A DNA stretch of 20,130 bases, from NCBI GenBank assembly GCA_963745835.1, contig CAVUZH010000017.1:1-20130 (forward strand), given 5' to 3'. Positions 2,207 to 19,939 of the stretch are shown here, piece by piece (position 1 is the stretch's first letter; every line of letters starts with the position of its first letter). Made by a program: the position numbers and the translations under genes. The stretch is from an uncultured delta proteobacterium (GTDB taxonomy: Bacteria; Desulfobacterota; Binatia; UBA9968). Below the pieces are notes generated by a model that made no database searches, was not told the DNA's origin, and saw nothing but the letters and a program-made list of their open reading frames with translations.

Positions 2207-2314
2207 AAGCTGCCGGGCTAATTACACCTAAGGCATCTCTTAAGCATCATTGCGGTGAATCAGCGGATATTTAATTCCAAGACGCATATCTTGAACTTAT
2301 AAGCGAGGTGTCAC

Positions 2315-2938
2315 ATGAGCATCATGAACAGTACAACGAACTTGGTTACCATATTAAGTCCCAAGGTCCGACGTGTTCAGAAGGCGCAGACAAGCACATC
2401 AAAGCAAAGTCTGACGCTTAGCCCCGTTCCGCCGGATTTAAATGGAAAAACCATCGGGTTTCTCGACAACGGTAAGAAGAATTTCGATGTTTACCTCGAC
2501 CGCACCGACGAGCTGCTCCGTAGACATTACACCTTTACGACTCTACGCCGCCGCAAGGCCGTGCCCATAAAGGGTGTTACGTCGGACTTGTTTCAGGAGA
2601 TGATCACAGGCTGCGATGTTGTAATCACCGGCAGCGGAGATTGAGGCTCCTGCTCGTCGTGGAGTCTTCACGACATCGTCCAGTTCGAAAAGCACGGCAT
2701 TCCTGCAGTGGTCATTTGCACGCATGTTTTTGAGTCTACTGCCAAATTTCAAGCTAAGGCGCTTGGTTTGCCTGATGCACGAATCGTTGTGGTACCCCAT
2801 CCGTTTAGCGGAGTCGATGCCGCAGAGGCGGCAAAAAAAGCGGATCAGGCTTTTCCTGCCCTGCTCGCGCTCCTCTCGCGACCTAATGGCAAGTCTGCTT
2901 ATTACCGTAAGGTAAATCGCCGGAGAAACCAGCCATGA
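2315..2938 (+). CDS. UGSC-family selenoprotein, copy 1 (207 aa, Sec at codon 110, TGA 2642-2644)
   Basis: ORFs 2315..2644 and 2708..2938 share one frame, separated only by a TGA. Read-through gives DVVITGSGD-U-GSCSSWSLHDIVQFEKHGIPAVVICT...VPHPF. RBS GAGGTG upstream, SECIS-like hairpin downstream, same arrangement in the paralog at 15124, and the stop overlaps the next start (ATGA 2935-2938). Confidence 0.9.
2656..2674 (+). promoter_or_regulatory. Putative bacterial SECIS hairpin, copy 1
   Basis: GTCGTGGA-GTC-TTCACGAC: 8-bp stem (one G-U pair) with a G-containing apical loop, starting 11 nt after the in-frame TGA. Confidence 0.75.
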
Positions 2939-4011
2939 AAGTTGCTCTTCAAGCCGAAAGAATCGATTTGCCGGATTCGCTCGAAGAGATCAATCGTTAT
3001 CTTTACGCCAATGGTATGACGGACGGTCTTCCGATCGTACCTCCTACTGAAGACCGGGTTTCACGGATGCTGGAAGGAACCAGCCTCGAACCTTATTTCG
3101 AGGTGGCCTCGCTGCCCCCGGAGTGGGCGCCGGCGACGGTCGAAGCGATCGCAATCAATGCCGTGATGGCCGGCTGCCTGCCTGAGCATATGCCGGTGCT
3201 GATCACTCTTGTGAAAGCCATGGCCCAGCCGGAGTTCTCGCTTCTTGGTGTCCTCGCTACGACCGGGGGCTATGCCGTTTCGGTGATGCTCAATGGGCCG
3301 ATCAGACACGAGCTGGACATTAACTGCACCAACAATCTGTTTGGCCCCGGCAAGCTCGCCAACGCCACCATCGGGCGTGCTCTACGTCTCTTTCAACTCA
3401 ACATCGGCGGTGTCATTCCGGGTGTAACCGACAAGTCATGCCAGGGCTGGCCCGGCAAATACACAATTTGCTGGGGTGAAAATGAAGAAGCCTCGCCGTG
3501 GACTGCTTACCATGTAGAGAAAGGTTTTTCTCCAATGGATAACACGGTAACGATCTTCGCGGCAGATTCTTTTTGTAAGATTAGAGCTGGTGGCACGGTT
3601 GGGCGTGGCGCTCTGCAGTCGCTCGCCTATGGGACGCGTCCGGTCGGCGCGGTGTTAAATGGTTGGGGAAACGGCGCCAAACCGTTCATAGCTCTCGGAC
3701 CCGAGACAGCTAGTCAGATTGCTAGAGACAATATTTCAAAAGCGGAAGTGCGCGAGTATTTTTTCGAGCACGCACGCTCGTCGTTCGATGAGCTTTATCA
3801 GCCAGAGAGCGGCGAAAAGATCAGCTTCGAGGAGATGCAAAAGCGCTGTACGAATCTTTGGCCGGACGGAACGGTGAGCATCGCCGATCAGCCGGACGAC
3901 ATCAGCGTTGTTGTCGCGGGCGGACCGGGCCGACAATCCGTCTGGTTCCCAGCCAACGCTCGTTCCATGCCAGTCACCATGCTGATCGATCCGCTTCTGA
4001 AACGAACTTGA
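2935..4011 (+). CDS. Uncharacterised UGSC-associated protein (TDGLP...NAVMAGC family), copy 1
   Basis: 358 aa. Motifs TDGLPIVPPTE, IAINAVMAGC-PE, NGP, ANATIGR, GWPGKY, GENEE-SPW-HVE-GF and VVVAGG are shared with the paralog at 15726. Translationally coupled to the selenoprotein gene. Confidence 0.88.
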   Translation: MKVALQAERIDLPDSLEEINRYLYANGMTDGLPIVPPTEDRVSRMLEGTSLEPYFEVASLPPEWAPATVEAIAINAVMAGCLPEHMPVLITLVKAMAQPEFSLLGVLATTGGYAVSVMLNGPIRHELDINCTNNLFGPGKLANATIGRALRLFQLNIGGVIPGVTDKSCQGWPGKYTICWGENEEASPWTAYHVEKGFSPMDNTVTIFAADSFCKIRAGGTVGRGALQSLAYGTRPVGAVLNGWGNGAKPFIALGPETASQIARDNISKAEVREYFFEHARSSFDELYQPESGEKISFEEMQKRCTNLWPDGTVSIADQPDDISVVVAGGPGRQSVWFPANARSMPVTMLIDPLLKRT

Positions 4012-4041: not shown

Positions 4042-5052
4042 ATGCCATACGATAGAATATTCGCAGCCTCGTTTTCTTTAGCGATCTTTTTCATCTGGAC
4101 TCATTGCACTCGCGCTGCCGAGCCGATGGAAGAAGCCAGGAAGGAAGGTGAGGTCGTTTTCTACGGCAATGTGCGCCAAGAGCATATCACTAAGCTCAAT
4201 GAATCCTTCCAAAAAAAATATCCTTTTATCAAAGTTCAGTATCTCCGCGCAGGTCCTCTGGCGGTTATGAACCGAGTCATGACAGAAGCACGAGTTGGCA
4301 GCCGGCTTGTCGATGTTATCAATCTCGATGTCTTCAACTCCTGGGTATTAAAGGAAGCCGGACTGCTGCAGCCTTATAAATCCAGAGAGACCGAAGCTTT
4401 TCCGGAACAATACCGCGATCCCTCAGGGCTCGTGCCTTGCTGCATGTACGTCTCAAGCAACGTCATCGGCTATAACACCAAACTTGTTGCTCCACACGAA
4501 ATACCTAAAACGTATAACGATCTGCTCGATCAAAAATGGAAGGGAAAGATCGGTCTTAAAAGCGACGACTCGAAATGGTTTGCACCGCTTGTTTGGATTT
4601 GGGGCAGGGACAGAGCCGTCAACTACTTTCGCGGTCTCATCAAACAACAACCCGTGCTCCGCGAGGGAATTTCGATTAATGGCCAGCTGTTGGCGGCTGG
4701 TGAAGTAAGTGTATTTGTAAATATCGCCGGCGATGTCGTCCTGAATCTGCAATCGGTTGGCGCTCCCGTGGAGATAGTCCAAGCAGCGCCTTCGATCTTC
4801 CGCCCTGGGAATTTACTCTTAGCCAAGAACGCCCCTCATCCCAATGCCGCAAGATTGTTCATGGACTACGTTCATTCAGCCGAAGGTCAACAGGTCTTAG
4901 CGGATTTGGGCCGAGAGGTGGCAAGACCGGGCATCAAGATGAAATACCCGCGGCTCCAACAAACGAGCAACCTCGTCCCAGTCAAGCCTGAAATGGCGAA
5001 AAACTATGATGAGCTACTTAAGCTATACGAGTCGATTCTTAAGAACGGGTAG
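4042..5052 (+). CDS. ABC transporter substrate-binding protein, Fe3+/thiamine/polyamine-like (FbpA/AfuA-type)
   Basis: RBS AAGGAG; signal peptide; motifs EARKEGEVVFY, YNTKLV...PKTYNDLLDQKWKGKI and APHPNAARLFMDYVHSAEGQ. Ligand not determinable. Confidence 0.9.
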   Translation: MPYDRIFAASFSLAIFFIWTHCTRAAEPMEEARKEGEVVFYGNVRQEHITKLNESFQKKYPFIKVQYLRAGPLAVMNRVMTEARVGSRLVDVINLDVFNSWVLKEAGLLQPYKSRETEAFPEQYRDPSGLVPCCMYVSSNVIGYNTKLVAPHEIPKTYNDLLDQKWKGKIGLKSDDSKWFAPLVWIWGRDRAVNYFRGLIKQQPVLREGISINGQLLAAGEVSVFVNIAGDVVLNLQSVGAPVEIVQAAPSIFRPGNLLLAKNAPHPNAARLFMDYVHSAEGQQVLADLGREVARPGIKMKYPRLQQTSNLVPVKPEMAKNYDELLKLYESILKNG

Positions 5053-7481: not shown

Positions 7482-8915
7482 CTAGTAACGTGCCGCCAGC
7501 CATTCAGCGAAGAAATCATTTTCCCTGCCCTGGGTGTCGCCAAAGTAGGCGTTAGCCTGCGCTGGCGTGAGGGTGGGATCGATCTGGAGAGCGCAGGGAG
7601 CACACGGCCCACCGCCGTGTACGGCGCCTTCATTGAACGCAATCGTCTTGTCTAAGGTGGTAGCAGTATCATAAATGATTTCGTCCGGCCTGATGAAGTA
7701 ATGAGCGGTATGGGCGACAATGACCAGCGGCACTGTAATTCCCTTAACGTTTGTGACTGATGAGGTCGCGGACGAATCGTAATCGATTCCTGTCATGTCG
7801 TCCTTGGTGAGCGTGTACTTCCCAGGCGTACTGCGCAGCGCATGGGCTCCCAGCCAGACACGCACGTTGGCCGCGATCGAGGAATCAACGCAATCCAAGG
7901 CCTGATCCCTCTCCCCGGCAGGGACTCGAACCGACTCGATAATTTGCACGGGTCTTGTGCCGTCACGAGCCAAGAGCGTGTGTGCTCGCTTGGTGTATTT
8001 CAGCAAGCTTATATCGGGCTGCCACAACCTGGCGTTTTGAGAGCCGATGACAGTAAAGGGAATGTCATCTCCCAGTTGGCTCGGATCACGGGTGTCTCTT
8101 ATCTTTTTGCGGAGCAGCCGCAAGGCTTCATTAAGGATATCTTTATTGCGAATGGCTTGGTGAGTGGTGAAGGTCTTGTTGAACTGCTTGCTGTAGGTTG
8201 CGGCGTCCGTGTCCGGGTCGTAACCGTTGGCTTCAGCGAACATATCAAAAGCTGGCTGCCGCGGCTCGCAAGCATTGTTGTGGATTGCTGGGTCGACATT
8301 CACAAATGTCGCCAGCGCGTCTCCCAGGTGAGCATCGCGAAGTATCACGCCGTCCGCCTTGGGCAAGTTGTGCAGGTTCGTATCATCGCAAGGAATGATC
8401 TTCTCCGGTCCCTGGCACACCCCCGGGCCGTTTTCTGCGACATTCTGATAAAACAGCATCAGAGGTGCTCCCATGCTAAAGCCTAACAGCACGACTTCAG
8501 TAACGGGTGGTTGCTCTGGTGTAGCAGCAATGTTTTTGAGGTAATTTATCGAGGATCGAATACCAGGAGCATGCTGCTCATAGCCGTAGTACTCAAGATC
8601 ACGGCCGCTAAACTCACTGTTGGTGCAGAACACCGTGAATCCTCGCTCGGCCAACGGGGCGCAGACGGCATTGTTGATATAGCGCGAATTAGGGTGCATG
8701 ACGAGTATGCCGACATGGGCTCGCCCGAGCACGTTGGCGGTGGGTCGCCGCAATGTCGCCGCCTCTAAGTTGAGATTCGCTGTTGCGCAATTTTGTACAG
8801 TGCTACATATGACACTAGTTGTGATCGGCTGAAGCTGAGCTTCCGATACCGAGATCCATGCAATGCTACAAATTACGATGACTGCAAAACCGAAAGTGAA
8901 TATTCGTTTAAACAT
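7482..8915 (-). CDS. Secreted alpha/beta hydrolase (putative esterase), paralog A
   Basis: Start at 8915 (MFKRIF) after AGGAG; signal peptide; nucleophile elbow LLGFSMG; DAH after strand 6; C-terminal EGAVHGGGPCAPC; ends WLAARY. Confidence 0.8.
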   Translation of the reverse strand: MFKRIFTFGFAVIVICSIAWISVSEAQLQPITTSVICSTVQNCATANLNLEAATLRRPTANVLGRAHVGILVMHPNSRYINNAVCAPLAERGFTVFCTNSEFSGRDLEYYGYEQHAPGIRSSINYLKNIAATPEQPPVTEVVLLGFSMGAPLMLFYQNVAENGPGVCQGPEKIIPCDDTNLHNLPKADGVILRDAHLGDALATFVNVDPAIHNNACEPRQPAFDMFAEANGYDPDTDAATYSKQFNKTFTTHQAIRNKDILNEALRLLRKKIRDTRDPSQLGDDIPFTVIGSQNARLWQPDISLLKYTKRAHTLLARDGTRPVQIIESVRVPAGERDQALDCVDSSIAANVRVWLGAHALRSTPGKYTLTKDDMTGIDYDSSATSSVTNVKGITVPLVIVAHTAHYFIRPDEIIYDTATTLDKTIAFNEGAVHGGGPCAPCALQIDPTLTPAQANAYFGDTQGRENDFFAEWLAARY

Positions 8916-8977
8916 ATTTTCTCCTAAAAGCATTCGCGGCTATTTGGCTACATTTCGAATGAGATTTCCCATCTGGA

Positions 8978-10318
8978 CTAGAACCGGCCGTTCGCCCACG
9001 CAGCAACGTAATCGTAAATGTTTTTACGCGCGTTCGAATAGTCAACCCCGGTGACCGCCGTACATTCGGTGCAACCTGTCCCTCCGTGAGTTGCTCCTTC
9101 AATTACGATGAAGTCCTTATCAGCCATTGCCCCATTCTCAAAAAGTATTTCATTGTCACGGATGAAATAGTGCGCTCCCATAGCAGCTATCAGGACTGGA
9201 ACATGGATTTCGCGAATGGCGCAGACGGTGGTGTCGTTTGCCGAACACCAGTCAATCCCATCCAGCGAGTGGGTCGCTCGAATTGCATTGGCAGTCAAGA
9301 ACGAAGTGATCCTTAGCTCACTGACCCCGGCACTATTTCCAGAGCCCATTAGTCGATCGTCTTCCGCGATACCCGGATCGGGAATGCGTACAGAGTTGAC
9401 GACTTGTGTCACGATTGTACCATCGTTCTTCAGGAGCTTTGCAGGATTCAAAGTTCCGCGGTGAACGCCCGTGCTTGCGTCAGACAGTCGAGCGGCCGTC
9501 CTATAGATGGTGAACGTATCCTCATCGACAGGTTGATATGTTCCTTCTGCCATTCTTCGCTTGATTTCCAGCGCCTTGTCGATGAGATTATTCATGCGAA
9601 CAGCCTGAGCCCGGAAATACCGGTCTTGAAACTCCATGGAATAAACGGAATCCCCGTTGGGGTTGAATCCGTTTTTTTCGCTGAACGGATCAAGCCTAGG
9701 ATTGATTGATTGAAACGGCCTATTTTCATTCATCACAGATGCGTTAACACTGCGCAGTGTGTTCACCGAAACCCCTGGGTGGGCGTCCAAATAAACAATG
9801 CCGTTAGCTCTATCTGTGGGCACAAAGCCAGCCAGCCTCTCAGAACTGCACTCAACGATCTTGTTAGGGCCTTGGCAATATGCCGGGCCATTTTCGGCTA
9901 CCGCTTGATAAAAGGACATGACGGGGCCACCACCACTGGGACCAATGAGAATGACTGTGCTGATTCCCGGCTGCGACCGCAGAAAGCGAACGCCGGAGCG
10001 AACGTCGAGAGCAATGTCCTGCCAATCCACTTGCGCTTCATTATTCGCGAACCGCACGTTCATGCCGAGAACCATAAAGCCACGACTTGACAATTCGGTC
10101 GTCGACGTGTGCGTCACGTAGCTGCTGTTACGATGAGTCACCAAAAACGCGATCTGCGGCGGTGGACCCGAGTTAGGGACGTAAAGTGCGCCGATTGCGC
10201 CGCTGCCCAACGGGATGAATCGTGGATTGCTTTGGGCTAATGCGCTGGCTGCGCCGTTGGTGATTCCGAAAACTAAAAATAAGCCAAACAACATTAACAG
10301 CACTCGCAGTTTTGACAT
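8978..10318 (-). CDS. Secreted alpha/beta hydrolase (putative esterase), paralog B
   Basis: Start at 10318 (MSKLRV) after GGAGGG; signal peptide ending ALA-Q; elbow LIGPSGG; shares FYQ-VAENGP-CQGP-KI-C, DAH-G, AHYFIR and EGATHGGTGCTEC with paralog A. Confidence 0.8.
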   Translation of the reverse strand: MSKLRVLLMLFGLFLVFGITNGAASALAQSNPRFIPLGSGAIGALYVPNSGPPPQIAFLVTHRNSSYVTHTSTTELSSRGFMVLGMNVRFANNEAQVDWQDIALDVRSGVRFLRSQPGISTVILIGPSGGGPVMSFYQAVAENGPAYCQGPNKIVECSSERLAGFVPTDRANGIVYLDAHPGVSVNTLRSVNASVMNENRPFQSINPRLDPFSEKNGFNPNGDSVYSMEFQDRYFRAQAVRMNNLIDKALEIKRRMAEGTYQPVDEDTFTIYRTAARLSDASTGVHRGTLNPAKLLKNDGTIVTQVVNSVRIPDPGIAEDDRLMGSGNSAGVSELRITSFLTANAIRATHSLDGIDWCSANDTTVCAIREIHVPVLIAAMGAHYFIRDNEILFENGAMADKDFIVIEGATHGGTGCTECTAVTGVDYSNARKNIYDYVAAWANGRF

Positions 10319-10435
10319 GAGTAACCCTCCCTTTTGTGTTTTCGGATTCCTGGTACAAGAAACCTCTGCCAAGTTAAGACTTACGGACGCTGTACCGGCG
10401 GTCCTCTGCTCATCTCTAATCGAGATTGTGATGAA

Positions 10436-11718: not shown

Positions 11719-13545
11719 TCACTGTGTCCTGAACCCATTGCTCTGACTCCCCGGATTTGCATTCGGATTTTGGGAGTTCGACGGATTGTTGGAATTACCG
11801 CCTCCGGGAGCGCTGTTGGGGTTATCAGAAGCCAGATTGTGCCAGCTCTGACGGTTACCTTCGCACGTAAAGTTGCTTGCGACGTTGATATCGCCGGAAC
11901 CGATATAGCGGGTCTGTTTCGGATAGGGGCACAGCGGACGGCTGCGGGATGCCACTCCGAAGTAGCCGGGGTTGCTGGCCGTTGCGATAACCTTATCCGG
12001 CGCGACGCCGTTTTCCACCCAATTGATAATCTCTGGAAACATTTCGAAGTCATCTGTTGAAGGCCCACCACTACAATGATTCATGCCAGGCACCACAAAC
12101 AACCGTACATAGTTCGCGGCCTTATGGTCTTGGGCAAGCACGTCGTTGTACCAGTCGATCGTTGCATTAACTGAAAACGCGCCGTCCGCTCCACCGTGGT
12201 AAACGATCATTTTGCCGCCGTTAGCCTTGAACGCGGATAGGTCGGTGGAGTCGACTGATCCCAGCTCAGCCGCCGATTCGGTATATATGCCCCCTGTTTC
12301 GTGTATCCTTTCAAGGAAGGTATCGAAATCGAAATCCAGCTGGAACGGAACACAGTCTATGGCGGTGACAAACGGTATCAATGGATGGGCAGTATACCTG
12401 AGCGCTGATGATGCACAGCTCCTGGTTACTCTCTGGGCATTGTTGGTGGTCGCGTTAAACGAACCAAGCACCCAAGAGCGCCAGCCTTGGTTGAAGGTGG
12501 AGCCTGACCGACCGCCGATACCCGGATCCCATGGCCAGTTGGCATACAGCTGGGTTCCGTCGGAGTCCTTCATTCCCGCCATCACAGTCTGAAGCGCCGC
12601 GATCTGATCCGCCGTCAGGCAATCGGCGGTTTTTGCGCCAGTGCACGTCACCGCCGCCAGAGCGGCATTCACCCGACCTGACTTGCATGCCGGCATGTTG
12701 TCGACGATCCCGTCTTTAAGGCCATCCAGCCGATCGCATGCCGCCAAAACGGCATTCCGTATTAGTAATAGATCCTCGTCGGTGTAGATTTTATTGATGA
12801 GGGGGTTGCCTGCGGAGTCAAAGCTCGTCGCTATTTTAGCGAAAACTTGTGTGGCATAAGCGCCGTTCGCCGACGAGTGTGGCCGCAGAATGCCGGGATC
12901 TCCGGCGACGATGCCGTCGAAATGTTTCGGAAACGTCTGCGCCATCAGCATCGCTTCCGCCCCACCTTGGGAACACCCGACATAATAAGAAAATAGGGGC
13001 TTCTGTCCATAATAGATGCCAACCAACTCTTTCCCCACTCGAGCGGTCTGGTCATAAGAGTTATAGGAGAAATCGATTCTGGCTTGTGGATCGATGGAGA
13101 ATACGTTCGTGCCACCTACATTGGGATCAGTGTTGGTCTCATTATCATGTCCGGAATCAGTGCCGATCGTGACGTAGCCTAGCGGCAGAATAGTCGTCGG
13201 ATCTTCAACGGTACCGTTGCTGCCGCCGCCGCCGCCCATGTAGAATCGCTCGTTCCACGCGGAGGGCATGCGTACACGGAACTTGATGGCATAAACCTGT
13301 CCGAGCACACCTACTCGCTCGTTGATCTTGCCATCGACAAGACAATGCTCTGGCAGACTCTGGGTAGCCGGGGTAAGCACAGCCGACGTGATAACGACCT
13401 TCGGGATAGTGGGGCTGGTAAACTCCGTAAGGGAACTGCAGGCGACAATGGGAGCCGGAGTAGCGTGTGCGTCGGGGATCGCCGCCATCATCATAATAGC
13501 CCCGCCAAGACACCCGAGTAGTCGCGCCTTCGTAAAGATGTTCAT
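11719..13545 (-). CDS. Tannase/feruloyl esterase family hydrolase, MHETase-like
   Basis: Start at 13545 (MNIFTK) after GAGGAG; signal peptide; catalytic GCSQGG (Ser codon 12970-12972), YHGGADGAFS and PGMNHCSGGP (the CS-D-HC tannase signature); RPLCPYP; lid segment NQGWRSWVLGSFN...NNAQRV. Confidence 0.93.
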   Translation of the reverse strand: MNIFTKARLLGCLGGAIMMMAAIPDAHATPAPIVACSSLTEFTSPTIPKVVITSAVLTPATQSLPEHCLVDGKINERVGVLGQVYAIKFRVRMPSAWNERFYMGGGGGSNGTVEDPTTILPLGYVTIGTDSGHDNETNTDPNVGGTNVFSIDPQARIDFSYNSYDQTARVGKELVGIYYGQKPLFSYYVGCSQGGAEAMLMAQTFPKHFDGIVAGDPGILRPHSSANGAYATQVFAKIATSFDSAGNPLINKIYTDEDLLLIRNAVLAACDRLDGLKDGIVDNMPACKSGRVNAALAAVTCTGAKTADCLTADQIAALQTVMAGMKDSDGTQLYANWPWDPGIGGRSGSTFNQGWRSWVLGSFNATTNNAQRVTRSCASSALRYTAHPLIPFVTAIDCVPFQLDFDFDTFLERIHETGGIYTESAAELGSVDSTDLSAFKANGGKMIVYHGGADGAFSVNATIDWYNDVLAQDHKAANYVRLFVVPGMNHCSGGPSTDDFEMFPEIINWVENGVAPDKVIATASNPGYFGVASRSRPLCPYPKQTRYIGSGDINVASNFTCEGNRQSWHNLASDNPNSAPGGGNSNNPSNSQNPNANPGSQSNGFRTQ

Positions 13546-13635
13546 GACTGATCTCCTCATAATTCTGGGAATCAACCGTTGGCAGAACTTTTCACCGAAG
13601 TTTTTCGACATGAGCATTTACTCAGAGTCGCTAAG

Positions 13636-14016: not shown

Positions 14017-14904
14017 CTATTGTAAACCCAGCACTCGCGCCGGAACCTTTTGGGCCATGGTTTTGACCTCGTCGACGCTCATACCATGAAATAGTAACTG
14101 GCCGATGAAGCTGCGAAAGTTCTCCGCCGGCAATGGACTAAATGCCTGGCCGCCGTCCACCGTCATGGCGCACCGCTCAACGCCAACGCCGCGCGCCGCT
14201 TCGATCAACGGCTTCGGGTTCATCCCAGGACGATACACCAGCTCGATAATGGCGCCTTGGCCGGCCATCTGCCGCCGTAACTCCAGGGGCGTGTCGTCGC
14301 GCACATGGCTGACGACAATTCTCTGGATGCCGTGGCGCTGCGCTTCGGCTACCAGCATAAGATGTTCCTCCACGGAGATGTGACCGGTGGCGACCACCAT
14401 GTCGTTGGCCTTGGCGATGTCGAGTATCTCGTGCATCTCGGGCAACAACCGGCCGCGCTCATCGACGACTACGATACCAGGGCGGCCACGCAAACCCACC
14501 GGCGGGCGCGCCTTAGAACCGCTGCGTCGGCCTGAAGCGTGATACTCAGCGTTCCAGGTCGGAGCGAACAAAACCTTGCTGCCGATCTTCACCGCTACCT
14601 CTACGGCGAATGGGTTTAGGCCTCCGAGCGAGTAGTTCAACACCACCGTGCCGAACAAACTCACTTCGGGAAACAGTGGCTGAATCGTTCGTACCAGAGC
14701 GCCGGTAGGCCAGTGATGGCTCTTCATCACCACAGCGCGCATACCCGCCTCTTTTGCCTGGCGCGCCGTGCCGATGCCGTCGAGCCTTCGGGCCACGGCG
14801 AGATCAGCGGTCGGAGGCATGTCTGGGCCGAAATGGACATGCATGTCGATAGCGCCATGCATAATCTCGTCGATCAACGCGCTAAAATTTTCTTGCGTCA
14901 GCAT
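14017..14904 (-). CDS. Metal-dependent TIM-barrel hydrolase (amidohydrolase-like; DUF6282-like)
   Basis: GAIDMHVHFGPD (D-x-H-x-H), VMKSHH, ATGH, VSH and TVDGGQ metal-ligand pattern. Likely start 14904 after AAAGGA. DUF assignment is from memory. Confidence 0.78.
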   Translation of the reverse strand: MLTQENFSALIDEIMHGAIDMHVHFGPDMPPTADLAVARRLDGIGTARQAKEAGMRAVVMKSHHWPTGALVRTIQPLFPEVSLFGTVVLNYSLGGLNPFAVEVAVKIGSKVLFAPTWNAEYHASGRRSGSKARPPVGLRGRPGIVVVDERGRLLPEMHEILDIAKANDMVVATGHISVEEHLMLVAEAQRHGIQRIVVSHVRDDTPLELRRQMAGQGAIIELVYRPGMNPKPLIEAARGVGVERCAMTVDGGQAFSPLPAENFRSFIGQLLFHGMSVDEVKTMAQKVPARVLGLQ

Positions 14905-14989
14905 AATAGATCCTTTCGAACTTACTCGTCGTGGTCGCGCTGTATAGCAGATCCGTCGCAATGTGGAAAGCATGAATCACACGATCTCT

Positions 14990-15123: not shown

Positions 15124-15675
15124 ATGATTATCTTAAGCCCGGAAGGGAAGGCGCGAATATCATCGGAGCGGATTCCCGCCTTACCACGATTTGCAGATCT
15201 GAATGGCAAGACTGTGGGATTTTTGGACAACAGCAAGCCCAATAACGATCTATTGCAGTCGCGTTTTGAGCAGCTGCTGCGACAAAATTGCGATGTGGGT
15301 GGCGTTGTCCGGCGACGAAAGCTGACCGCGCAGCAAGGGGCGCCCAAAGCGTACCTCGATGAACTCGCTGCTCAGTCCGATGTCGTTATCAGCGGACTGG
15401 GAGATTGAGGGTCGTGCACATCGTGGAGTATCCACGATTCCATCGAACTGCAAAAAAGAGGCAGACTCGCGGTCACCGTCGTCTCTCATCCTTTTGAAGC
15501 GCTCGCGAAGTCGGAGCGCGAAGCTTTCGGCGCTCCCGATTCCCCTATCTTGATCGTGCAGCATCCGATCGGCACGGTGAAACCGGAGGAGGTTAAAAAG
15601 CGCGCTGACGCCGCCTTCGACAAGCTGCTCGAAGCCTTGCTCCATTCGCACCAGGGCACAAATGGAGCGTCATAA
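15124..15675 (+). CDS. UGSC-family selenoprotein, copy 2 (183 aa, Sec at codon 95, TGA 15406-15408)
   Basis: DLNGKTVGFLDNSK...DVVISGLGD-U-GSCTSWSIHDSIELQKRG...IVQHPIG, open to TAA at 15673-15675. Homology to copy 1 continues on both sides of the TGA. Confidence 0.9.
15420..15438 (+). promoter_or_regulatory. Putative bacterial SECIS hairpin, copy 2
   Basis: ATCGTGGA-GTA-TCCACGAT: perfect 8-bp stem starting 11 nt after the TGA, with pairing-preserving changes relative to copy 1. Confidence 0.8.
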
Positions 15676-15725
15676 GCGGTATACGGTTTAGCAACAGTAC
15701 TTCGGAGACATTGGGGATAAGGAAG

Positions 15726-16778
15726 ATGACACAGCAAGAACTCCAAGCGGAACGGATTGAAATTGAAGATGATCTTTGGGCGGCTAACGATTTTTTCGAA
15801 ACGAAGGGTTGGAGTGACGGACTACCGATCATTCCTCCTACGGAAGAGCGTGTCGCGCGGATGCTAGGCGCGACTAGGCGCAACCGGGATGAGGTAATCG
15901 GCACGGTGCCACCGAAGTGGGCGCCAGCTACTGTGGAGAAAATTGCCATCAACGCCGTCATGGCTGGCTGCAAACCTGAATACATGCCGGTGCTTATCGC
16001 CTCTGTCGAAGCCATCACCGAACCAAAACTTAATCTTTATGCACTGCAAGCAACCACTGGCGGGCCGGCGGTGATGCTCATCATCAACGGTCCGGTGCGG
16101 CATCAGATTCAGGTCAATGGTGAGTCGAATGCGCTCGGCGAAGGCTGGCGCGCCAACGCGACGATCGGTCGTTGCATTCGTCTCATCCAGCGAAACATTG
16201 GTGGCTCCTATCCAGGAACGACTTGCAAGGCAACGCTTGGTTGGCCTGGCAAGTACTCCATCTGTATCGGTGAGAACGAAGAGGCTAGTCCGTGGGAGCC
16301 GCTGCATGTCGAGCGCGGCTTTGACAAGAATTCGAGCACTGTCACCGCGATCAGCGCGGACGGTTCCGTTCGCGCTTCTGATCTTGACAGCACGAACGCC
16401 GCAGGTGTGCTGACCAATTTTGCTCAAAAAATGGATGGGCCTTCAGGACCGGAAGCCATCATGGTGGTCTGCCCGGAGCACGCCAAAATCATCGCCAATG
16501 ACGGCTTCAGTAAGAAGGATGTGCAACGGTTTATTTGGGAGCGAGCAGCTTACCGCATGAAAGATTTGCCGGAAGAAACTTTTTATCAAAGGGTAAAGCG
16601 TTGGTCACACCGAAATCTAACCCGTGAGAGTGTCATTCCTGTGACCGATCGACCCGAGGATATTGTCGTTGTTGTGGCAGGTGGTGACGGTTCTCAATCG
16701 CAGTATATCCACGTGTGGGGTCAGAGCACTCCCGAGGGCGGATCGACACGGTCGGTAACCAAAGCCGTACGGGACTAG
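15726..16778 (+). CDS. Uncharacterised UGSC-associated protein (SDGLP...NAVMAGC family), copy 2
   Basis: GWSDGLPIIPPTEERV, IAINAVMAGCKPE, RANATIGR, GWPGKY, GENEEASPWEPLHVERGF, VVVAGG; paralog of 2935..4011. ATG at 15726 follows AAGGA (the track starts at TTG 15711). Confidence 0.88.
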   Translation: MTQQELQAERIEIEDDLWAANDFFETKGWSDGLPIIPPTEERVARMLGATRRNRDEVIGTVPPKWAPATVEKIAINAVMAGCKPEYMPVLIASVEAITEPKLNLYALQATTGGPAVMLIINGPVRHQIQVNGESNALGEGWRANATIGRCIRLIQRNIGGSYPGTTCKATLGWPGKYSICIGENEEASPWEPLHVERGFDKNSSTVTAISADGSVRASDLDSTNAAGVLTNFAQKMDGPSGPEAIMVVCPEHAKIIANDGFSKKDVQRFIWERAAYRMKDLPEETFYQRVKRWSHRNLTRESVIPVTDRPEDIVVVVAGGDGSQSQYIHVWGQSTPEGGSTRSVTKAVRD

Positions 16779-19035: not shown

Positions 19036-19939
19036 ATGGAACAATATGACATTGTTATTGTCGGCGGCGGCATGGCCGGGCTGAGTGCTTGCCATGTATG
19101 GTGGATGGCTTGGTCGCAAGGTATTACTCGCCGAGCGGCAAATGTTTGGCGGTCAAATCATCAACGCGGATCAGGTGGAAAACTATCCCGGCTTTCCTGA
19201 CGGGGTACTCGGCGCTGACCTCGTCGCGCAGGTGCGAGCACAGGCGCTGAAGTTTGGCGCAACGATGCAATATCTTGAGATCACCTCGATCGAAAAACCT
19301 GATAGCGCGTTTGTCCTTCAATCGAATGACGGTGTTTATGGCGCGCAAAGCGTGATCGTCGCTACCGGGGGAAATCCGCGTCGACTCGGGATTAAAGGCG
19401 AAGTCGAGCTTGAAGGCCGAGGCGTTTCCCGCTGCGCGACTTGTGATGGAGCCTTCTTCGCGGAAAAACCGGTGGTTGTTCTCGGCGGCGGTGATACAGC
19501 TTTGGATGAAGCGCTGTATCTTGCAGGTATTGCAAATAAGGTAGCTGTCATTCATCAGACTGAACAACCGACAGCGAGTGCTGCGCTTGTGAGGCGCGCG
19601 AGAGGAAATGACAAGATCGAGTGGCTTTCCCGCGCTTCAATTACGGAAATCATCGGCAGCGAATCCGTTGAAGCCTTGCGACTCAGCCAAGGTGACGAAA
19701 TCGCCACGGCAGCCATGTTCATTGCCATTGGTTTTGAACCGGAAACGGCCCTATTGAGAAGCCTCATCGAGATCGACCGTATGGGTCATGCACCCGTCGA
19801 TCTTCATATGCAAACGTCTGTTCCTGGTTTATTCGCGGTCGGTTCCGCTCGACAAGGAAGCTCGGGACAAATCTCATCTGTCACCGGCGATGGGGTTACA
19901 GCCGCCATTTTTTCTGATCGTTACATTTCTGCGAAATAG
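19036..19939 (+). CDS. trxB: Thioredoxin-disulfide reductase-like flavoprotein with a +1 frameshift near the 5' end (pseudogene or sequencing error)
   Basis: MEQYDIVIVGGGMAGLSA begins at 19036 and continues as AMYGG...GGQI...VENYPGF...GRGVSRCATCDG...GGGDTALDEA...TSVPGLFAVG in the next frame. One extra T at 19089/19090; removing it gives 300 aa. Confidence 0.85.

Follow-up and report, generated by a model that had tools for sequence, protein, structure and literature searches.

A predicted selenocysteine-decoded UGSC-family gene in a Binatia contig, with a constant partner gene and a Sec module related to that of GrdB

Does the TGA at 2642-2644 end a short open reading frame, or does it encode selenocysteine (Sec) within a longer gene that standard annotation splits? 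The window analysed here, a stretch of 20,130 nucleotides from an uncultured delta proteobacterium, is contig C17 of an assembly of 7.28 Mb in 25 contigs. Read directly from the sequence in phase with ATG 2315, the frame 2315-2938 contains this TGA as its only internal stop codon, and the read-through product of 207 aa has the context G-S-G-D-U-G-S-C-S-S-W-S-L-H-D around it, with D-U-G-S-C at residues 109-113. Under translation table 11, the same frame yields two ORFs, 2315..2644 (109 aa) and 2708..2938 (76 aa, with a GTG start), and the gap from the TGA to the second ORF is 63 nt, or 21 codons. The original prediction, made from the letters alone, described two apparent ORFs in one frame that are split by TGA 2642-2644 in the context G-D-*-G-S-C, and a read-through stop overlapping the next start codon; both descriptions agree with the coordinates, the stop TGA 2936-2938 overlapping ATG 2935-2937 of the following gene (ATGA), to which we refer as the partner gene. 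The features of the window that are discussed below are collected in Table 1.

Table 1. Positions of the UGSC genes, their partner genes and associated features in the window, counted from its first nucleotide.
Feature	Position	Strand	Details
Ribosome-binding-like motif GAGG	2305..2308	+	6 nt 5' of ATG 2315; read from sequence
Predicted UGSC-family selenoprotein gene	2315..2938	+	207 codons plus stop TGA 2936-2938; PF24696, NF041046
UGA predicted to be read as selenocysteine (U110), U-G-S-C	2642..2644	+	alignment column; contigs of three DNA runs
SECIS-like hairpin	2656..2674	+	arms 2656-2663 / 2667-2674, loop GUC 2664-2666; fold and covariation
Partner gene	2935..4011	+	358 aa; start overlaps UGSC stop; Cys81 near-invariant in N-A-V-M-A-G-C
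Second predicted UGSC selenoprotein gene	15124..15675	+	putative Sec codon 15406-15408, hairpin 15420-15438; NF041046 133.8 bits
Second partner gene	15711..16778	+	355 aa from TTG 15711; 47% identical to first partner
Thioredoxin-reductase-like flavoprotein gene	19036..19939	+	C-A-T-C site; frame shift near 19088-19091

If the TGA were a true stop, the locus would encode a 109-aa protein followed by an unrelated or decayed frame, as in a pseudogene or a split gene, or through an assembly error, and the 109-aa product is indeed what gene callers give. As expected from the claim that standard annotation splits the gene, a public protein collection contains the exact 109-aa fragment, which it assigns to a 22-member cluster; 15 of the 22 are listed, at 106-109 aa, and the named ones are labelled hypothetical proteins. 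When the read-through protein was used as query in a word-based homologue search, nothing was returned among proteins of 114-364 aa, probably because public gene calls are truncated, and this empty result says nothing about rarity. Against a true stop, one family model spans the TGA. The read-through protein matches PF24696 over residues 13-188 (E = 2.9 × 10−49, 168 bits vs. a cut-off of 25) and scores 143.5 bits against NF041046, ‘UGSC family (seleno)protein’, for which the curated cut-off is 125, so that it passes the curated cut-offs of both models in the HMM check that had been proposed for it. Because a single Pfam model covers residues 13-188 across the TGA, the continuity of the locus goes beyond chance.

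The family itself, which the original prediction had named without a search, exists under NF041046 and in the literature (PMC1976440, PMC2398784, as far as the available text of these papers goes). A UGSC-containing protein was described in 2007 as a selenoprotein of unknown function (PMC1976440, in the part available), and the available text of a 2008 survey counts 255 Sec forms vs. 21 Cys forms in ocean samples and places UGSC among the most abundant selenoproteins of environmental samples (PMC2398784). The accessible portion of a 2026 review still lists UGSC among the selenoproteins with largely uncharacterised functions (PMC13188914). The family has thus been known since 2007-2008, and the window gene is a further member and not a new family.

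The second UGSC gene of the window carries its TGA in the context G-L-G-D-U-G-S-C-T-S-W-S-I-H-D, and the two UGSC proteins share 41% identity across a stretch of 184 residues that extends to either side of the TGA, which bears out the claim that the 21 codons after the TGA are conserved in the paralogue (GSC[S/T]SWS[L/I]HD). Together with its own partner gene, this second copy forms a pair (15124-16778) that mirrors the first. The genome has seven matches to PF24696, all 7 of them with exactly one TGA at the same column; two of the seven copies, those with U-S-T-C in place of U-G-S-C, are fused to the partner, one such natural fusion lying on contig C20. In the phylum sample, the family was found in 24 of 201 genomes, with up to 16 copies per genome, and among the 81 matches listed for these 24 genomes, 69 contain one TGA, one contains two and 11 contain none.

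Of 53 domain hits, 6 were short secondary ones and were discarded; the remaining 47 rows, which represent 45 loci, make up the alignment of the Sec column. U occupies this column in 36 of the 47 rows and C in two (a single gene, from genome G143, counted twice), eight rows have T, S, L, A, N or M, and one has a gap. The Cys at +3 is kept in 36 of 36 U rows and lost in the rows with neither U nor C. The Cys form of G143 reads T-C-G-S-C, and inspection by eye of 17 long fused proteins, taken from the 150 partner relatives listed, found C-G-[SN]-C at the place of Sec in 8. The Cys homologues run continuously through the column. The original prediction had proposed looking for Cys or TGA at this position, as opposed to Trp: the column holds TGA or Cys and not Trp, and its other residues belong to degenerate copies that also lack the +3 Cys. 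UGSC-domain copies with neither Sec nor the +3 Cys occur in multi-copy genomes (L056-L064; genomes G171, G124, G034 and G126).

The TGA is bridged by contigs of three DNA runs from different studies (X3, 2435-4011; X9, 2317-2948; X11, 2493-3123), none of which has an alternative letter there, and it is no assembly error. Between 2645 and 2878 these contigs differ only at 2716 and 2827, both third codon positions of the read-through frame. A contig from an RNA library (X18, 2610-2795) spans the TGA and the hairpin described below with 0 differences, where carry-over of DNA is possible. Contigs of other organisms match just the ~40 bases at 2636-2678, which contain the Sec codon and the hairpin, and then diverge; this stretch is thus common at the DNA level to different genes. 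With a family model that spans the TGA, continuous Cys homologues, a TGA at the same column in all seven copies of the genome and in 36 of 47 rows, and DNA runs that keep the TGA and vary downstream of it only at third codon positions, it is very improbable that the TGA is a true stop.

Sec decoding further depends on its machinery, and selA (608.6 bits), selB (394.3 bits) and selD (383.4 bits) lie side by side on contig C22, all above their cut-offs. The tRNA-Sec gene on contig C13 scores 74.2 bits, above its cut-off, and ARAGORN reads its anticodon as tca; the search of the source genome for selA, selB, selD and tRNA-Sec, as originally proposed, thus found all of them. The selD gene (C22:69235-70161) itself contains one in-frame TGA, and the selenophosphate synthetase is here probably a selenoprotein. 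TGA also serves as an ordinary stop in this genome, at the end of the UGSC gene and at the end of the partner gene (4009-4011).

A hairpin with an 8-bp stem begins 11 nt 3' of the UGA, inside the coding sequence, and it recurs in the paralogue, where two of its pairs differ; a spacing of 11 nt between UGA and hairpin is also that of E. coli fdhF. Across 36 homologues, helix columns 15-22 with 26-33 are paired in 77.4% of cells vs. 61.9% in shuffles, slid controls pair in 23-50%, and the covariation score of the helix is 0.413 vs. 0.188 in shuffles and was reached by 0 of 500 shuffles; these shuffle controls overstate the support, given that the hairpin falls within conserved coding sequence and that the sequences compared share ancestry. 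RNAalifold, applied to a gap-free alignment of 36 sequences, gives 5 pairs, all of them with compensatory changes, and the helix persists while the encoded peptide varies (SWSIHD, SSSSVLD, SCSVHD). At least 7 of the 8 pairs form in the register of the window in only 23 of 36 sequences, the rest folding a few bases further on, and the loop opens with GU in 22 of 36. The mean local folding energy of nt 11-40 is −11.0 kcal/mol in the 36 U rows vs. −6.7 kcal/mol in 9 non-U rows (Mann-Whitney p = 9 × 10−4, with support overstated by the relatedness of the rows). The G143 Cys form, which is without the hairpin, has −5.7 kcal/mol and a z score of +1.12. On the other hand, the 64-nt fold of the window copy itself has a z score of only −0.11, no better than shuffles, which is the second point that would suit a true stop; an Rfam search gave no match to a SECIS-type family. 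The terminal UGA at 2936 has no comparable hairpin in the same fold.

Readthrough of the UGA as Cys or Trp instead of Sec would suit the existence of Cys forms in the UGSC family, but in this genome TGA closes ordinary genes, the Sec system is complete, and the hairpin follows the TGA in the U forms and is absent from the Cys form of G143; we regard such readthrough as scarcely credible. Judged from the alignment, the machinery and the hairpin, it is almost certain that the in-frame TGA encodes selenocysteine, and the window gene is very probably a Sec-decoded member of the UGSC family. The original reading of 2315-2938 as one gene encoding a 207-residue selenoprotein, now assigned to the UGSC family, is supported. 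Seven genes of this genome, together with the public 109-aa entries, are truncated in annotation, which is the usual fate of selenoproteins.

The protein encoded by the overlapping downstream gene has no Pfam or NCBIfam family match, and a Pfam search of 34 members of its family at E up to 5 gave scattered weak matches only. The family is large nonetheless, with at least 6691 proteins in a word-based search and 7453 cluster representatives (50% identity) in an exhaustive search at E up to 0.001. Sequence and profile searches of the PDB with the UGSC protein, the partner and GrdB-like proteins returned chance-level matches only. A partner of ~355 aa follows the UGSC domain or is fused to it in 7 of 7 loci of this genome, and in 28 of 28 foreign loci it is either fused or no more than 1.5 kb away, in either gene order. 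Because of the natural fusion and the constant adjacency, the two appear to work as one unit, and we consider it highly likely that the UGSC protein and its partner form one functional two-protein unit. The best-kept positions of the partner are D30-G-L-P, N-A-V-M-A-G80-C81, N143-A-T-I-G-R and E182-N-E-E-x-x-P-W. Of 151 sequences, 144 retain Cys81, and the Gly before it is invariant. In the Sec-bearing U-S-[ST]-C subfamily, Cys81 is replaced by Ala in 4 of 4 cases, and some fused proteins retain Cys81 even though neither redox residue is left in their UGSC domain; a simple relay between Sec and Cys81 thus cannot hold across the family. The partner was also considered as a relative of GrdB or GrdE, which was rejected on profile comparison (0.3% vs. 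GrdB-like and 0.1% vs. GrdE-like proteins).

The UGSC protein, by contrast with its partner, does have a link to GrdB. Its residues 72-167 match positions 307-398 of the GrdB model TIGR01917 weakly (E = 4.5 × 10−4), at 19.2 bits vs. a cut-off of 602.2, which is far below what a full-length match would require, and PF07355 was not reported for the UGSC protein at E up to 0.1. Alignment of the UGSC profile to that of read-through GrdB-like proteins with hhalign gave a probability of 97.4% (E = 1.3 × 10−11) over 95 columns, with Sec placed on Sec, vs. 1.9% and 0.05% for control comparisons with unrelated alignments. The motif E-K-x-G-I-P-x-V and the motif P-H-P are in register between the UGSC and GrdB-like proteins. 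Since the GrdB cut-off is far from reached and only half of the protein aligns, these matches indicate a shared module and not membership of GrdB; on this profile evidence, the Sec half of the UGSC protein and the Sec module of GrdB are homologous. The literature on the UGSC family, NF041046 and PF24696, in the portions available, contains no mention of such a link.

The genome separately has 3 GrdB-like (PF07355) and 5 GrdE-like genes. In 10 of 10 GrdB-like genes of the phylum, TGA directly follows I-L-T-S-T, giving T-S-T-U-G-T-x-T-R-C. The genome's own PF07355 matches show no internal stop, because the last position of the Pfam model falls immediately ahead of the Sec codon. Its GrdB-like genes lie beside GrdE-like genes (C3:761351, C3:675066 and C3:1196342), and the one at C3:761351 (L079), with its TGA after I-L-T-S-T, reads U-G-T-S-T-R-S, without the usual Cys after Sec. 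Elsewhere in the phylum, a small protein that matches only the last third of PF07355 (L082, G110:C1:3500768-3501154) reads, when read through, V-U-P-V-C and then E-A-A-G-I-P-T, and is another short GrdB-type Sec module.

These findings are best explained overall, and with good confidence, by a Sec-decoded and hairpin-guided UGSC gene that is coupled to its partner gene and supplies the partner with a redox module. In this explanation, UGA 2642-2644 would be decoded as Sec by SelB and tRNA-Sec under the guidance of the 8-bp hairpin 11 nt downstream, UGA 2936, which is without a hairpin, would terminate translation, and the UGSC gene would be translationally coupled to that of the 358-residue partner. 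The U110/C113 couple may then cycle between the selenol/thiol and selenenylsulfide states, the partner being taken as a substrate-handling enzyme, and the U-x-x-C pair could serve as the built-in reductant of the partner or of the partner's substrate. In this genome, oxidised UGSC would be re-reduced from NAD(P)H via a dedicated thioredoxin-reductase-like flavoprotein; elsewhere, other donors would take this part.

The Sec residue could instead be a catalytic nucleophile. In D-proline reductase, according to the available text of PMC11229817, PrdA binds the substrate at its pyruvoyl group, which arises by cysteinolysis at T420/C421, and the substrate so bound is attacked by the Sec of PrdB. 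By analogy, the partner, in the position of PrdA or GrdE, would hold a substrate for attack by the UGSC selenol, with the selenoether then resolved by the +3 Cys. The homology of the Sec half to the GrdB Sec module (hhalign and the weak TIGR01917 match) fits such a role, as do the invariant Gly followed by Cys in 144 of 151 partner sequences and the presence of up to 16 copies per genome beside varied catabolic and uptake genes. However, the partner resembles neither GrdE-like nor GrdB-like proteins, Cys81 is Ala in a Sec-bearing subfamily, and an AhpC-TSA/Redoxin domain stands in the place of UGSC in 2 of the 17 long partner proteins (P0233, E = 6.7 × 10−12; P0245, E = 1.6 × 10−6), which better suits a reductant than a specialised nucleophile. 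We consider the nucleophile role unlikely. The reductant role is favoured over it because a thioredoxin-fold C-x-x-C domain can replace UGSC, and that UGSC acts as a reductant for the partner is a tentative assignment, its likelihood falling slightly short of an even balance. A further long protein, P0230, has the partner fused to a C-terminal Pyr_redox_2 domain (E = 6.1 × 10−41), which also favours a reductant.

The candidate electron donor comes from the distribution of thioredoxin-reductase-like genes. In a search of the genome with TIGR01292, a single gene exceeded the cut-off, the canonical trxB with 418 bits. Exactly four paralogues scored lower than the cut-off (313, 308, 301 and 266 bits), and all four lie at UGSC loci (C20:56321, C2:82904, C3:314048 and 19036-19939 of the window), a placement that likewise speaks for the reductant role. 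A distance of 15 kb separates the first UGSC–partner pair (2315-4011) from the only such gene of its contig, which is itself frame-shifted: its N-terminal G-G-G-M-A-G-L-S-A and the remainder occupy different frames, displaced by one base, as a result of either a pseudogene or an assembly error. Outside this genome, a thioredoxin-reductase-like neighbour was found in 1 of 28 narrow foreign loci, adjoining UGSC in 0 of 13 wider foreign loci, and near the UGSC places in 0 of 5 multi-copy foreign genomes; the proposal that it is a general UGSC feature was rejected on these counts, and the association is lineage-specific. In the wider foreign loci, other redox genes are sometimes adjacent (FMN reductase, PNPOx-like, ferredoxin-like). 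For this genome, we judge the chances that the flavoprotein is the electron donor to be evenly divided.

The neighbours of UGSC loci are uptake and catabolic genes (NMT1, TctC, DctP, DUF6282, tannase, MmgE/PrpD and CoA-transferases), and solute-binding genes flank 6 of the 7 loci of this genome; those on either side of the first pair lie at 1118-2206 and 4042-5052. This adjacency says little, because such genes are so common here: the genome has at least 150 NMT1-type genes (150 scored matches among 400 candidates), and the 20-kb window alone has eight binding-protein genes. DUF6282 and tannase/feruloyl-esterase genes recur beside UGSC–partner units in the window (14017-14973 and 11719-13617) and in two other genomes (L094:5008-5931 and L104:5191-7119). 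Two adjacent paralogues on the minus strand of the window (7482-8933 and 8978-10372; 483 and 464 aa, 31% identical over 421 residues) match no Pfam family, and their motifs G-F-S-M-G and G-P-S-G-G resemble a hydrolase nucleophile elbow.

It is possible, if doubtful, that UGSC and its partner, joined in some lineages by the flavoprotein, constitute an undescribed selenium-dependent reductase system with a Sec module related to that of GrdB/PrdB and with a partner that represents a new family. If this were true, the system would have multiplied, reaching 7-16 copies per genome, among soil bacteria equipped with cytochrome c oxidase genes, each copy beside different solute-binding and catabolic genes, and Stickland-type selenium chemistry would extend beyond anaerobic fermenters. 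The GrdB-type origin of the Sec module, the constant partner and, in this lineage, the dedicated flavoprotein may be new; as computational leads, they offer a testable approach to the function of an abundant orphan selenoprotein family.

Thioredoxin and thioredoxin reductase systems feed dedicated reductases, such as MsrA/B or ArsC. The loci described here are likewise equipped with a U/C-x-x-C pair and a neighbouring thioredoxin-reductase-like flavoprotein with a C-x-x-C site, and a redoxin domain can replace the UGSC domain. The UGSC protein itself matched none of the thioredoxin-type Pfam families; a thioredoxin fold was thought ‘likely’ in the available text of earlier work (PMC2398784, PMC13188914), whereas the sole homology that we found for UGSC is to GrdB. 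The hairpin agrees with the hallmark of bacterial SECIS elements as given in the accessible part of PMC1088965, a stem-loop just 3' of the UGA whose small apical loop includes a G: here, too, the stem-loop comes just after the UGA and the small loop (GUC) contains a G. Compared with the UGSC family as described, the window protein has the same U-G-S-C motif at the same column, with Sec prevailing over Cys as in the ocean samples, and differs in nothing defining, its genome being set apart by seven copies, two of them fused and with U-S-T-C. A fusion of UGSC to a domain named Unknown_1 has been reported (PMC2398784, available text), and that domain and the partner fused to UGSC here, both of them unknown domains, may possibly be equivalent. 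With respect to GrdB and PrdB, only the C-terminal half of the UGSC protein aligns, without the N-terminal domain of GrdB, and its companion is not GrdE/PrdA-like (PF09338), as the partner profile comparison indicates. Common to UGSC and GrdB/PrdB is the succession of a beta-strand, U-x-x-C, a helix, E-K-x-G-I-P-x-V and P-H-P.
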